A stretch of DNA of 64,000 nucleotides, taken from an uncultured virus (IMG/VR IMGVR_UViG_3300026963_000002). Lineage: Duplodnaviria > Heunggongvirae > Uroviricota > Caudoviricetes > Thumleimavirales > Hafunaviridae. The notes below the pieces were generated by a model that made no database searches, was not told where the DNA came from, and worked only from the letters and a program-made list of their open reading frames with translations. The position numbers and the translations under genes were made by a program. Location: IMG/VR virus record IMGVR_UViG_3300026963_000002; one strand, written 5' to 3'. Of this stretch, positions 1 to 46,473 are shown piece after piece (position 1 is the stretch's first letter; every line of letters starts with the position of its first letter).

Positions 1-51
1 GTAGTAAAATCGGATGCAGAAGACAGAGTGCGGGTCTGTGCACCCGTCGGT

Positions 52-5650: not shown

Positions 5651-5736
5651 AGATGTATCTGATTCAGATTCTCGTAGAAGCCGCTCCTCAGTCTAATAGA
5701 CGCGATATAATGACTTAAAGATAGCTATTCAACTCT

Positions 5737-6165
5737 TTACGCTACTGGTGTGAGCTGACCTGCTTCGTCGATTATTCGATCTTGATAGTGGACTCTCGCG
5801 TGTTCGTCGTGGCCGAGAACTTCGATGTTATCCAGACGATTATCGAGCTTCATCGAGTTGATGTGGTGAACGTCGTTCCCAACTACCGCGTCGTATCCGT
5901 ACTTCGCAACCGCGAGTAGTCGATGGTGGAGGACGGAAACCGACTTTCCTTCCACGTTCACGACGAACTGTTCGTACCCGTCCGATCTCTCGGAGAGAGC
6001 AACGCTCGATTGACGCCCGGTGCGCTCTATCCCGAATTTCACCATCCAGTTCCGTACCGTCTCCTTTCCACAGCCAAGTTCCTCAGCGACCTTTCGGATG
6101 GAATGGTGACGGGAGTAGGCTTCTTCCAGCGTCTCCTCATCTCTCCACGGTCTTTCGGAGGACAT
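5737..6165 (-). CDS. Free-standing HNH endonuclease with N-terminal HTH
   Basis: HHRLLA...VHHINSMKLDNRLDNIEVL...H. Confidence 0.85.
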   Translation of the reverse strand: MSSERPWRDEETLEEAYSRHHSIRKVAEELGCGKETVRNWMVKFGIERTGRQSSVALSERSDGYEQFVVNVEGKSVSVLHHRLLAVAKYGYDAVVGNDVHHINSMKLDNRLDNIEVLGHDEHARVHYQDRIIDEAGQLTPVA

Positions 6166-8729
6166 TAGCAGAACGCGGCGAGTCCGGTCTGACTCTGCCC
6201 CTCGATTGCGGCGTCCACGTCGATGCCCACGGCGTCGAGAATGTCCACCATCGGGTTCCGAACGAGAGTGTCCTGCATCCGCTTCACGTCCACGGTGAGC
6301 TGGTCACGGAGGTCGTCCAATTGCGCTCCCCGCTCGTATCCAATCACATCGAGCGTGTCTTCTCCGAGTGTCGTGTGCTTGAGGTACACCCGCTTGACCG
6401 TATTCCCCTTCCCGAAGTTGCAGTCCTTGATGAACTTGTTAGCGTAGAACGCCGCTCGTGGCGAAGCGCCCTTCGGTGTCCCGTCCGACCACGAGTAGTC
6501 GTCCAGTTCTTTTCCAAGGCCGCCGGGGATTCCGATGAGATCGAAATCGGGGTTAGAGGCGTCGATGCGTTCGGCTCCTTCCCGAATGATACGGCGAATG
6601 TCGTTCTCGTCGCCGCCACGGACGATGGTTTCGAGGACTTCCCGTTGAACCTCCTTGGTGAGCTGAGCCGTGTTGTTCTTCTTGCACGGGTAGCCGCTGA
6701 TGGACAACTTCCCCTTCCCGTCTTTCAGGGTGGCGTCGTAGTCCATCCCCTCGTCCCACATCTTCACGTAGGCGTAGAACTTCTTTTGCCCGGACATAAA
6801 GAACCGAGAGGCGTACATCTCGATCTCGATCTCGAACCGGCACGGGTCGGTCGGCATCCCGTACTCGGCGGCGAGGTCGACATAGACCTCGTTGTTGAGG
6901 GTGTCCGTGATTTCTTTCGCGGCTTCAAGACACTCCACTTGGCTCATCGAACTATCAAACGCTATATAATTTGAGTCGGTATCTCCATATGATACATTTG
7001 CGATACTTTTCTCGTTCACGTACTTCGCAGTACGTTTAATCACCGCCTGCCCCGTGAGGGTGACAGCGGCGGCAATATCGGCGTCGTAGAGGAAGAACCG
7101 AACCCACCCCAAAACGCCGTAGATCGAGTTAACTATCGTCTTCCTGACACTATACTCCTCTCCCCATTTCGCCTTCTCCTCGGGGCTGAGCGAGTCGTCC
7201 TTCTTCATCTCGCCAGCGTGTTCCTTCAGGCGGAGAGCTTCATCCACCAGTTCGCGGAACACGCCGTCATAGTCGAGACGGAAGTAAACGTCATTCGCGG
7301 CCTTCGCCACCGGCACGAGGTCGCCTCCTTCTTCGAGGACAGCGTAGAGGCCGTCGTCGTGTTCCTCTACGTGGATGGGGTCAACCTTCGTCTCCGGGCT
7401 GGCGTTCAGCATCCAGAGCGCGTTCGGATACAGCGAAGCAAGGTCAATTCCGACGATGTTCTCCTTGAGGCCGTTGAAGGCGTCGAACACGTAGGCTCCG
7501 TCGTAGCTCCCCGTGTCCTCCGGCTCCGTCGCGGTCGGCCCGGCGTAGCCCTCGTTGTAGAGCTTCCGGCGAATCATCATCTCGATGAACTCGTTGTTCG
7601 CCGTGGTCTGCTCGAAGTCCAGACCAATCGTATCACGGAGTGCCTTCTTGAACGCGAGAACGTTCGCGGCTTCGTTGACGCCGACCGTCAGGAAAACGTC
7701 CTTCGTGTTGTAGTTGAGGAACTTCTGCGTGTTCTCCGAGTATAGCTCGTAGAACCCCTTGTCCGTGTGTTCGATCTTCGCGTCGTCCAACTCCATCTCG
7801 GCGGCAGAATCGAGCGCCCCGCTGACCTTCGTGAACTTGGTGTCCTTCCAAGCGTCCATCAGGTCGTAGCAGGTACGCCCCTGAATCGTCGGGCCATTGT
7901 ACCCGGTGTAGGAGTTCCCGGTACGGGAGAGGCGGTCGGCGTTGACACCGCGCTCTTTCATCCGCTCGATGACGAACGGGGTGTCGAACCCATTGCTGTT
8001 CCACCCGCAGATGAGGTCGGCGTCCTTGTCCTGAACGTAGCGGGTGAACTCTGTGAGCATCTTCCGCTCGTTCGGCTCGAACTTGAGCTGACTCAGGTGT
8101 TCGAGGCCGAGGTCGCTTGGATGGCTCACCGCATCGAGGTCGGCGTCGGGGAAGCGTTCCCCAAGCCCGTGACCATCGAGGTCGATGAAGCCCACGTACT
8201 CGTCGGTGTAGTTGTCGTGAGCGACGATAGAGAGGATACGGGCCTTCCCGTAGTCGGGGAACCCTTCGCCCCGGTCGTCTGTCTCAATGTCGAACGTAAT
8301 CACGCGGGGCGGCGCGTCCATCTCCACCGGCTCGATCTCGTCGGGAGTCACCCGGTCGCCGGGGACTCGAACGCCGGTCTTGATGCCGAGGTCGATTCGG
8401 AGCCGGTCGGTGTAGTCCACGTCGGCTTCCCACGACTTCGAGAAGAACGACGAAACCTCTCCCATCTTCTTCGGGTTGTTGACGATAACCTTCGCCAGCT
8501 CGTCGCCGTCGACGAGGCCGGTAAAGTCGGTGTCTTCGTACCCCTCGATGTGGTCATTATCGAATGGGTCAACCTCCCCCTTCTCCGCCGCCGGGATGTA
8601 GAAGTAGGGGTCGAAATTCTCCACCGTCACCGAGTCCGGCTTCCCCGCTTCAGTTCGACCGAACAGTTTGATTTTCGGCGTGTAATCCTCGTAGACGAGT
8701 TCGGTGTTAGTAACGTAGATTTCCTTCAT
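6165..8729 (-). CDS. polB: Family B DNA polymerase (no intein)
   Basis: FDIET, GWNSNGFD, DLASLYP, KTIVNSIYG, YGDTDS, KKFY. Confidence 0.96.
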   Translation of the reverse strand: MKEIYVTNTELVYEDYTPKIKLFGRTEAGKPDSVTVENFDPYFYIPAAEKGEVDPFDNDHIEGYEDTDFTGLVDGDELAKVIVNNPKKMGEVSSFFSKSWEADVDYTDRLRIDLGIKTGVRVPGDRVTPDEIEPVEMDAPPRVITFDIETDDRGEGFPDYGKARILSIVAHDNYTDEYVGFIDLDGHGLGERFPDADLDAVSHPSDLGLEHLSQLKFEPNERKMLTEFTRYVQDKDADLICGWNSNGFDTPFVIERMKERGVNADRLSRTGNSYTGYNGPTIQGRTCYDLMDAWKDTKFTKVSGALDSAAEMELDDAKIEHTDKGFYELYSENTQKFLNYNTKDVFLTVGVNEAANVLAFKKALRDTIGLDFEQTTANNEFIEMMIRRKLYNEGYAGPTATEPEDTGSYDGAYVFDAFNGLKENIVGIDLASLYPNALWMLNASPETKVDPIHVEEHDDGLYAVLEEGGDLVPVAKAANDVYFRLDYDGVFRELVDEALRLKEHAGEMKKDDSLSPEEKAKWGEEYSVRKTIVNSIYGVLGWVRFFLYDADIAAAVTLTGQAVIKRTAKYVNEKSIANVSYGDTDSNYIAFDSSMSQVECLEAAKEITDTLNNEVYVDLAAEYGMPTDPCRFEIEIEMYASRFFMSGQKKFYAYVKMWDEGMDYDATLKDGKGKLSISGYPCKKNNTAQLTKEVQREVLETIVRGGDENDIRRIIREGAERIDASNPDFDLIGIPGGLGKELDDYSWSDGTPKGASPRAAFYANKFIKDCNFGKGNTVKRVYLKHTTLGEDTLDVIGYERGAQLDDLRDQLTVDVKRMQDTLVRNPMVDILDAVGIDVDAAIEGQSQTGLAAFC

Positions 8730-8730
8730 T

Positions 8731-8847
8731 TCAAATGAGGCAGGCACTCCACCCGCAGTTCAGGCACGTTTCGCAACCGCCCTGAGGGGCGATTCGCGGG
8801 CTATCACATCCGCACGGCGCGGCTTGCTGGTGACTCTGATTCTTCAT
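8731..8847 (-). CDS. 38-aa Zn-ribbon microprotein
   Basis: MKNQSHQQAAPCGCDSPRIAPQGGCETCLNCGWSACLI, fills the gap exactly between two genes. Confidence 0.6.
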   Translation of the reverse strand: MKNQSHQQAAPCGCDSPRIAPQGGCETCLNCGWSACLI

Positions 8848-19982: not shown

Positions 19983-20062
19983 TATTGCTGTATAGGTTTC
20001 TCTGGTTTGCTCGTCAGTCGGTTCAGCTCAGGCTACGACATTGTGTTTGCGTCGTAGCGAAA

Positions 20063-20135
20063 CGCCGAAGGCAGGACTCGAACCTGCAACCTACGGAGTA
20101 ACAATCCGTCGCACTACCAGTTGTGCTACCTCGGC
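20063..20135 (-). tRNA. tRNA-Asn(GTT), virus-encoded
   Basis: GCCGAGG/CTTCGGC acceptor, GCAC/GTGC D stem, ACGGA-TTGTTAC-TCCGT, GCAGG-TTCGAGT-CCTGC. Confidence 0.93.
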
Positions 20136-20283
20136 AAGAGAAAATGAGGGGCGGGTGCTTGTCCTCACTCTATTAGAGGTGGGACTAAGACTTAAAGATG
20201 CCTATATGATTCTTGGAAGTCGTCGGGAGGGATACCCCACTCGATGAGATTAATAGCAAGTAGAGAACTCGAAGGGTCGTCGA

Positions 20284-45503: not shown

Positions 45504-45509
45504 CTAACT

Positions 45510-45935
45510 ATGGATTTCCAGAAGGTTACTTTCGACACCGACCTCGATGAGATGGAGGCTGACGAGCTTGCTTCGCTCGTTCGTCAGTTCTCTGAGGCAC
45601 AGGAACAGAATATTGCGGAGTTCGAGCAGGCCAGCGAGACTATCGAAGGTCTTGAGGGTCGCGTCTCGGAGGTTCAGGAGTTCGACGCTGAACTGACGGA
45701 CGAGCTTGCCGAAGCCTCGCCTCTTGGTGAGGATGAGCTGGCGGCGTTCTCGATCTCGCGGAAGCGCGAGCTTCTTGCTGAGTTCGCTGAGGCGGACGAG
45801 GATGAGGAGGAGGACGACGAGGACGAGGAGGCCGAGTTCTCTGACATGGGCCAGCGCGGTGAGACGCACGACGAAGACGCGAAGGCAGACTTCGCAAAGG
45901 AGTACCTCGGAGATATTCCGGGGCTTGGCTTCTAA
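45510..45935 (+). CDS. Scaffold-like protein
   Basis: Acidic coiled coil after protease. Confidence 0.65.
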   Translation: MDFQKVTFDTDLDEMEADELASLVRQFSEAQEQNIAEFEQASETIEGLEGRVSEVQEFDAELTDELAEASPLGEDELAAFSISRKRELLAEFAEADEDEEEDDEDEEAEFSDMGQRGETHDEDAKADFAKEYLGDIPGLGF

Positions 45936-45957
45936 ACAAAGGAATTTCTGATATATA

Positions 45958-46473
45958 ATGGCTAACTTCAAGTTCGCTAAGTTCAAGGACACGCCGCTGA
46001 ACCGCGACGGTGAAACTCTCGACCCCGAAGCCGCTCTCCCTCTGCTTGAGGGCGACGTTGTGGGTCTGGACGCGGACGTTGATGGGAACACCATCGTCGT
46101 CCCCGCCGACGCTGACGCTGGCGTTGCACAGCCCGCTATTGGTGTGCTGATGGAGGACGTGCGCGACCGTTCGTACTGGTCGGCCACGCTCCACGACAAC
46201 GGCACGATGGGTCGCCGCCTCGACGACGCCTACGACAAGGAGCGCACGCAGGCTGGCGACGAAGTGACGTACTTCACCCACGGCATCTACCTCGAAGACG
46301 AGGACGCTACGGTGGACTTCACCCCGAACGAGCCGGTCTATCTCGGCGTCGGCGGCGGCGTCACTCAGACCGCTCCGAGCGCATCGGGCGAACTGGTGCA
46401 GTACCTCGGGGTTGCCGTCAACGCGACCACGTTCCTTCTGGACGTGAACCACGAGTACGAGACGCTGGCATAG
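45958..46473 (+). CDS. Capsid decoration/cement protein
   Basis: GDVV...PADAD..PAIGV...VYL..GG.T.TAP; before MCP. Confidence 0.7.
   Translation: MANFKFAKFKDTPLNRDGETLDPEAALPLLEGDVVGLDADVDGNTIVVPADADAGVAQPAIGVLMEDVRDRSYWSATLHDNGTMGRRLDDAYDKERTQAGDEVTYFTHGIYLEDEDATVDFTPNEPVYLGVGGGVTQTAPSASGELVQYLGVAVNATTFLLDVNHEYETLA

Follow-up and report, generated by a model that had tools for sequence, protein, structure and literature searches.

The question raised by this locus is why a polymerase gene that otherwise favours codons ending in G or C abandons that preference over some 20 codons at one catalytic motif. The gene, polB, encodes a family B DNA polymerase and lies at 6165..8729 (minus strand) of a 64,000-nucleotide (nt) stretch of DNA, referred to below as the window, from an uncultured tailed haloarchaeal virus of the HF1/HF2 group (Haloferacalesvirus, Hafunaviridae), a salt-lake virus. 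The G+C frequency at third codon positions (GC3) is 0.80 over the gene. At motif C, the core patch covering codons 574–593 counted from the ATG (KSIANVSYGDTDSNYIAFDS; 6951..7010, minus strand) contains only 4 G/C-ending codons out of 20, and the next lowest 20-codon segment of the gene contains 11. The initial annotation of this DNA had drawn attention to the patch, on the grounds that 16 of 20 codons at 6951–7010 end in A or T, and both its codon list and its coordinates proved to be correct. It had also linked the patch to the homing of inteins and, as an alternative, to immunity against an HNH endonuclease encoded next to polB.

The clustering of A/T-ending synonymous codons at motif C is real. 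A sliding GC3 profile along polB confirmed that the dip is significant, as none of 20,000 synonymous shuffles of the codons within the gene was as low: no 20-codon segment anywhere in the shuffled genes reached 4 or fewer (minimum 6), and 15.7 ± 1.76 G/C-ending codons were expected at the position of motif C, where 4 are observed. Among the 14,214 such segments in 61 proxy genes of the 64 kb, motif C is one of two with a count of 4 or less and the lowest internal one; the other, with 4, lies at the 5′-end of an open reading frame (ORF) whose start is probably over-called. The patch is embedded in an extended tract of high A+T content (6870..7040, minus strand; approximately nt 1690–1860 of polB), which is the part of the gene most diverged from every known relative. 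In a 60-nt sliding window the A+T content rises to 0.68 over 6937–7040, one of two such stretches deep inside a gene, and almost all A+T-rich stretches of 30–60 nt elsewhere in the window are intergenic. A further A+T-rich stretch, at 45925–45980, reaches up to 0.80 in 30 nt and lies deep in the predicted proxy ORF 45504–46205 (minus strand).

Two intein insertion points, both unoccupied, fall inside the 20-codon patch (6974..6981, minus strand): YGD/TDS, between positions 6981 and 6980 (D583/T584), and YGDTD/S, between 6975 and 6974 (D585/S586). By homology, these points and the N/S point of motif B qualify as unoccupied intein homing sites, as the equivalent positions are filled in relatives and the gene of the window is colinear and intein-free. 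A search for longer homologues detected the 1623-amino acid (aa) protein P0001 (44% identity), whose extein sequence, aligned by BLASTP, is interrupted between query residues 534 and 535 and again between 585 and 586 (at motif C one block ends at residue 586 and the next starts at 585); its inteins therefore lie at N/S in motif B and at YGDTD/S in motif C, and the latter has a LAGLIDADG domain. The same DTD/S position (c′) is occupied in the viral gene L124, while the viral gene L123 and two cellular PolB proteins (P0013 and P0021) carry their intein two codons upstream, at YGD/TDS (site c). The N/S site of motif B (site b) is filled in P0001 and in the viral genes L125 and L126. The link to intein homing sites drawn in the initial annotation was borne out by these occupied positions. 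It was also observed that the inteins of L123 and of L124/P0001, inserted two codons apart in motif C, have similar N-termini (SVP..EPV..), which suggests one intein family with shifted insertion sites. When P0001 was queried against IMG/VR, no match was obtained.

The patch was then followed through the relatives of the virus. Since polB is exactly 2565 nt long in all 14 Haloferacalesvirus relatives first fetched, its codons align one to one, and the same 20 codons can be compared directly. The number of G/C-ending codons is 4 in the window and L036, 5 in L038, 6 in L035/L016, HJTV-2, and HSTV-3, and 7 in HRTV-15, HSTV-4, HCTV-7, and HRTV-5; it rises to 11–13 in HRTV-26, HRTV-14, Hardygib1, HRTV-10, HRTV-18, HF2, HRTV-19, and HRTV-8 and to 14 in the Serpecor1-like L022 and VOLN27B. 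Averaged over the genus, the GC3 profile is lowest at motif C (9.3 vs. 16.06, standard deviation [sd] 1.85), and synonymous pairwise diversity within the genus is about twofold higher there than the gene mean (0.367 vs. 0.175, sd 0.072), with zero amino acid diversity in the core YGDTDSNYI. Compared with its nearest relative, the window shows 8–11 differences per 60 nt over polB nt 1700–1860 and 0–3 in the flanks, and the differences in the close pairs HRTV-15/HJTV-2 and window/L016 likewise peak over this tract. In a polB tree built without the patch columns, which represents an average because the gene is mosaic, the strongly A/T-coded state (8/20 or fewer) occurs in three separately supported clades, thus at least three changes are required.

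Outside the genus, the motif C dip is not a universal feature of PolB genes. Members of other halovirus genera and families score 15/20 (HSTV-2, HRTV-27, and HCTV-1) or 14/20 (HRTV-25), and in HGTV-1 and HATV-2 motif C is close to the mean of the respective gene. Two metagenomic relatives with 45–46% identity have modest dips of 10/20 (rank fraction 0.046) and 9/20 (0.085). Contigs from three independent metagenome studies (X5, X6, and X8) bridge motif C with no insertion and keep the patch, from which they differ only at codons K574 and A590 (residues of the window), although such contigs drop rare variants and are silent on rare intein-bearing alleles. X7 gave no coverage of motif C. Contig ends from three independent runs all fall in the interval 6846–6883 of the window, where the divergent tract has its downstream border, suggesting that variants co-exist there.

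The polB genes of the host family provided an independent view of the same sites. In species genomes of Haloferacaceae, 80 polB loci were scanned, in which the c site was empty in 59, occupied in 15, and unresolved in six; for gene-wide analysis, 72 full-length extein sequences were aligned after removal of the inteins. Comparison with intein-containing homologues supported the initial annotation also here, as GC3 in cellular polB collapses at the motif B and C sites only. Gene-wide, mean relative GC3 is lowest at site c (−0.245) and second lowest at site b (−0.160), and no other position falls below −0.06 (sd 0.046). Occupancy of the sites designated n, a, b, and c is 0/72, 4/72, 27/72, and 15/72, and both n and a are flat in GC3; of the 72 genes, 31 have the c segment among the bottom 2% of all their segments, and the corresponding numbers are 11 for b, two for a, and one for n. 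Synonymous diversity also peaks at c (0.590), and b comes second (0.493); the mean is 0.317 (sd 0.072). Amino acid composition does not explain the dips, since synonymous shuffles expect far more G/C-ending codons than are observed, 18.0 versus 13.1 at c, where 36 of 72 genes had no shuffle out of 300 as low, and 18.2 versus 15.1 at b. The extremes include Halorubrum kocurii and Hrr. sodomense, with 6/20 at an empty c site in genes with GC3 of 0.89 and 0.93, while several cellular polB genes score 19–20/20 at motif C. Across the Halorubrum loci L052, L078, and others of the series L043–L122, the empty motif C site scores 6–9/20 in genes with GC3 of 0.89–0.94, and the wobble positions differ between species. 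Empty c sites of Halorubrum stand 7.3 of 36 nt from the nearest occupied junction, compared with 1.7 ± 0.9 at 267 control positions. Over a shared 24-nt core, all viral alleles are 2–5 mismatches and the window 4–5 mismatches from occupied junctions of the hosts. The idea that a host intein endonuclease restricts the virus was considered and set aside as improbable, as the window is not clearly further from these junctions than G/C-coded alleles are.

The other two motifs named in the initial annotation fared differently. For motif B (codons 525–544; 7098..7157, minus strand, with the unoccupied intein site N534/S535 between 7128 and 7127) a weaker patch had been claimed. In the gene of the window itself the value of 14/20 is a weak dip and not significant alone; the genus mean is 12.4/20 against approximately 16, and in eight of 19 sequences motif B ranks in the lowest 10% of the own gene. 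The patch claimed for motif A (DLA/SLY; 7407..7466, minus strand) was not found: the region has 15/20 G/C-ending codons in the window and shows no GC3 dip, the genus mean is 16.7/20, and none of 19 sequences has it in the lowest 10% of its gene.

At the two polB sites trafficked by inteins, in hosts and viruses, G/C has thus been lost and turnover is fastest at wobble positions over a fixed protein, and rarely used sites are normal. The reading we favour, with moderate confidence and judging from sequence comparison, is that the motif C patch, at a homing site that carries no intein, represents the footprint left by homing endonucleases exerting pressure over a long time. We infer that an endonuclease may have been the driver of the patch and that the patch would lower cleavage or confer resistance. 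Because the amino acids of the catalytic motif are fixed, the DNA could change only at wobble positions, and since the GC3 of the gene is 80%, nearly all synonymous departures from a G/C-coded target would end in A or T, which would give the shift its direction. Cleavage followed by recombinational repair would turn the site into a hot spot of short-tract conversion, and such a hot spot would entail high synonymous turnover, mosaicism, and the presence of the same A/T haplotype in unrelated backbones. An allele with many simultaneous wobble differences from the endonuclease target would then escape cutting and stay free of inteins. A universal translational or structural need is unlikely to be the cause, as many lineages with the same catalytic motif show no dip.

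Several observations weigh against the footprint of a homing endonuclease. The genus and the relatives with at least 60% identity yielded no intein (0/18); the nearest ones are P0001 and seven of the 120 near-length homologues listed (of 154 past the E-value cut-off), each of the seven with one intein and all at 42–45% identity. The four viral intein-bearing genes with readable DNA (L123–L126) dip at two of four empty sites but also at one of four occupied sites. Of these genes, L123 and L126 speak for the favoured reading. In L123, the flanks of the occupied c site are normal (13/20) and the empty b site, with 4/20, is the gene minimum; in L124, the flanks of occupied c′ score 15/20 and empty b 11/20; in L126, the flanks of occupied b score 18/20 and empty c 10/20 (rank fraction 0.028). 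In L125, it is the occupied b site that dips, its flanks being the gene minimum with 7/20, and the empty c site has 14/20. Inteins have lower GC3 than exteins (0.38–0.70 vs. 0.62–0.81), and co-conversion of A/T-rich flanks along with an A/T-rich intein was therefore considered as a source of the dips; as a general rule it fails, because the occupied flanks are normal in L123, L124, and L126, L125 being the exception. The host data, whose statistics ignore phylogeny, are divided between the two sites. At c, in favour of the reading, occupied sites deviate less than empty ones (−0.160 vs. −0.267 over all genera, p = 0.059; −0.243, n = 7, vs. −0.412, n = 23, in Halorubrum, Mann–Whitney U test, p = 0.008), but at b they dip alike (−0.143 occupied vs. 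−0.139 empty, p = 0.92). In addition, patch GC3 in the hosts tracks the GC of the patch at codon positions 1 and 2 (rho 0.69), hence the A/T shift touches variable flanking residues too; the correlation is likewise compatible with mutation pressure toward A/T as such or with low-GC DNA having been imported. Finally, homing endonucleases are described as tolerating single synonymous changes in the accessible part of PMC3024317; this fits the need for many changes at once and is equally a caution regarding resistance.

In a purely mutational version of the favoured reading, error-prone repair, or a relaxation of G/C-favouring forces, at an often-broken site would produce the dip. This version fits both the dips at occupied sites and the correlation with codon positions 1 and 2, and the data agree with it and with selection alike.

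A short import is a different matter: a segment of about 160 nt could have been acquired by ordinary recombination from an unsampled relative of lower GC, with no endonuclease involved. The divergence of the window from all relatives, which is greatest over polB nt 1700–1860, the A/T-coded state in three clades, the clustering of the HRTV-15/HJTV-2 differences at the same tract, and the correlation in the hosts described above would all be expected from it. However, scans of phage, IMG/VR, and JGI sequences yielded no donor, and the patch GC3 of 0.20 is far under the gene-wide GC3 of any viral relative examined, the lowest being 0.51 (L025) and 0.62 (L124). Import also leaves unexplained why the same two motifs are affected in 72 host genes and the a and n sites are spared. 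We consider it unlikely.

A cluster of rare codons could alternatively slow translation at the catalytic hairpin in favour of co-translational folding, or serve some other need at the mRNA level. The dip does fall on catalytic motifs in viruses and hosts alike, columns 574, 575, 577, 578, and 580 are A/T-ending in 15 of 15 genus sequences examined, and TTT is given as a rare codon of Halorubrum in the accessible part of PMC7230728. However, the dip is absent or slight with the same motif in HSTV-2, HRTV-27, and HCTV-1 (15/20) and in cellular genes with 19–20/20. Even members of a single genus differ in its strength, from 4 to 14; the wobble sites, far from being conserved, are hypervariable; and the clustering of invariant A/T-ending columns was not significant (P = 0.66). 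Pacing of translation is thus a rather improbable cause of the patch.

The second proposal of the initial annotation was that the patch protects polB from the neighbouring HNH endonuclease; on this view the enzyme would cut the G/C-coded polB of competitors at motif C. The gene in question (5737..6165, minus strand) encodes a 142-aa protein with an N-terminal helix-turn-helix (HTH) and matches to PF13392 (HNH_3; 28.1 bits against a cut-off of 24.8) and PF18024 (HTH_50), and its start overlaps the polB stop by a single base (6165). It is a presence/absence insertion, sporadic in the genus, located precisely in the interval from the TAA of polB to the class-I promoter repeat (IR), and both its domain and this precise insertion polymorphism predict a free-standing HNH homing endonuclease. 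The HNH proteins of L035, L036, and L038 are only approximately 74–75% identical to that of the window, in contrast to 96–99% identity of the polB genes. An HNH homologue (32% identity) lies about 1 kb downstream of polB in L025, and in other halovirus families nuclease-type genes (LAGLIDADG, HNH C-terminus, T5orf172) are annotated beside polB (HGTV-1 L030, HCTV-1 L032, and HATV-2 L031). That a mobile gene is inserted at the polB stop, and that A/T-coded patches are found in seven of nine HNH-positive but in three of 11 HNH-negative sequences (Fisher p = 0.07 for these raw, clade-bound counts), speaks for the proposal. The closest pairs differing in the HNH gene do not: patch state is the same in three of three (HRTV-15/HSTV-4, HRTV-26/HRTV-18, and HRTV-14/HRTV-19), which leaves the proposal poorly supported. 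HRTV-26 and HRTV-14 carry the gene with a 12–13/20 patch, while HSTV-4, HCTV-7, and HRTV-5 lack it with 7/20. The insertion-linked differences between HRTV-15 and HSTV-4 are confined to the last ~200 nt of polB, about 600 nt from motif C, and HRTV-26 and HRTV-18 show no cluster of differences near the insertion. Moreover, host polB genes dip alike with no such HNH neighbour in this analysis, and motif A is not recoded. Immunity to the neighbouring nuclease is accordingly very improbable.

Least credible of all is a role of the patch as regulatory DNA within the gene, for example as a TATA-type archaeal promoter driving antisense or internal transcription, since, although nearly all A+T-rich stretches of 30–60 nt are intergenic promoter regions and the patch, among the few deep in a gene, holds a TATA-like run and a 9-mer that recurs in one promoter repeat (three occurrences in the window vs. 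0.42 expected), a profile of nine intergenic repeats gave no nhmmer match at 6951–7010 even at E 100, the patch sequence varies among close relatives, and the accessible text of PMC8707807 places polB inside an 18-kb transcript of HF2 and mentions no internal start.

The wider setting of the gene is that of the HF2-like viruses. Counted from the ATG, the family B DNA polymerase encoded by polB has 854 aa (860 aa if translation began at the in-frame GTG at 8747), with PF00136 (E 5.7e-23) and PF03104 above their cut-offs and YGDTDS at codons 581–586. Downstream of the HNH gene there is a class-I-like intergenic promoter repeat (5708..5741, minus strand; E 2.8e-5 with an nhmmer profile made from nine copies in the window), at the equivalent place of which IR4 is annotated in HF2, and beyond the HNH gene follow thyX and a dCTP deaminase gene. 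The order thyX-(HNH)-polB is common to the window and HF2-like genomes. Region 5700–8800 is matched over at least 80% of its length by 41 phage records at 80–90% identity, best by HRTV-15, HRTV-24, HJTV-2, and HSTV-4, and the nucleotide identity of polB to HRTV-15, HSTV-4, and others is 86–88%. The first 25 kb of the window are colinear with related genomes at approximately 86% identity, 81% of them being aligned at 86% to HJTV-2, HSTV-3, and HRTV-15. By nucleotide similarity and gene order the virus is a new Haloferacalesvirus. It carries genes for tRNA-Thr (GGT) and tRNA-Asn (GTT) at 52–123 and 20062–20136 of the window; the tRNA-Asn reads both AAC and AAT, the latter among the rare codons enriched in the motif C patch. 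A polB gene identical to that of the window (L034) was found on a 193-kb metagenome contig and a 98% identical one (L036) on a 161-kb contig, while genomes of the genus measure 74–78 kb; these contigs could be concatemer assemblies, proviruses, or larger replicons.

Returning to homing-endonuclease pressure as the source of the patch, a broader proposition can be put forward more tentatively, as a possibility raised by the sequence patterns: GC3 collapse together with raised synonymous turnover might be a general scar that attacking homing endonucleases leave in the genomes of GC-rich archaea and of the viruses of these archaea, marking sites attacked now or recently, and heavily recoded empty alleles might be resistant and spread by endonuclease-triggered gene conversion (passive homing). 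Passive homing would explain why the same A/T-coded cassette occurs in three unrelated viral backbones. If the favoured reading is correct, a local GC3 dip combined with high synonymous diversity in an invariant protein motif would locate present or past targets of homing endonucleases, and candidate resistant alleles, without any data on the enzymes; target genes would escape selfish elements by massed wobble changes despite the tolerance of the enzymes to single ones, and the same pressure would act on viruses and hosts at the same polymerase motif. The stage of the resistant empty site in the homing cycle becomes directly testable through natural allele pairs within one virus genus.

Resistant empty sites, the homing cycle, co-conversion, and the wobble tolerance of these enzymes are already known. 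Free-standing phage endonucleases such as SegG and MobE act by intronless homing, and the HNH gene described here resembles them in being a presence/absence insertion beside a conserved replication gene, with a co-converted flank in one pair; here, however, ~800 nt separate the patch from the insertion, and between sister pairs the patch does not change with the presence or absence of the gene. Clusters of rare codons have been proposed to pace translation, and the patch resembles them as a stretch of codons rare in the host that falls within a structured catalytic domain, but it is lineage-specific, hypervariable, and situated at intein sites rather than at a conserved structural boundary. 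The signature in question here is multi-codon A/T recoding that Halorubrum and its viruses have in common at the polB sites b and c, both empty and occupied. In the full-text literature (subscription journals and supplements being outside the scope), no description was found of A/T recoding at polB b/c sites that is directional, spans several codons, and goes along with raised synonymous turnover, including the accessible parts of PMC3024317, PMC4071816, PMC3990103, PMC10643990, PMC7230728, PMC8707807, and a 2026 dnaX preprint. The nearest parallel by gene is the polB-c intein endonuclease of Haloferax volcanii, which, according to the accessible text (Naor et al. 2011, PMC3024317), acts at the YGD/TDS site and homes by gene conversion with flanking homology. 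Gene family and motif C homing site are the same as here; there, however, the site was altered non-synonymously, and that text gives no account of natural empty alleles with massive wobble recoding. The nearest parallel by allele type is MCM-d of haloarchaea, for which the accessible part of PMC10643990 describes empty alleles made endonuclease-resistant through a flanking proline. The homing cycle and resistant empty sites presented there have in common with polB that a conserved site in a replication gene is either occupied or empty and that empty alleles differ at the junction. In contrast to resistant sites of the MCM-d type, the difference in polB, where resistance is what we infer, is almost wholly synonymous, is directed toward A/T, extends over ~20 codons, and is found in both the virus and the host genus.

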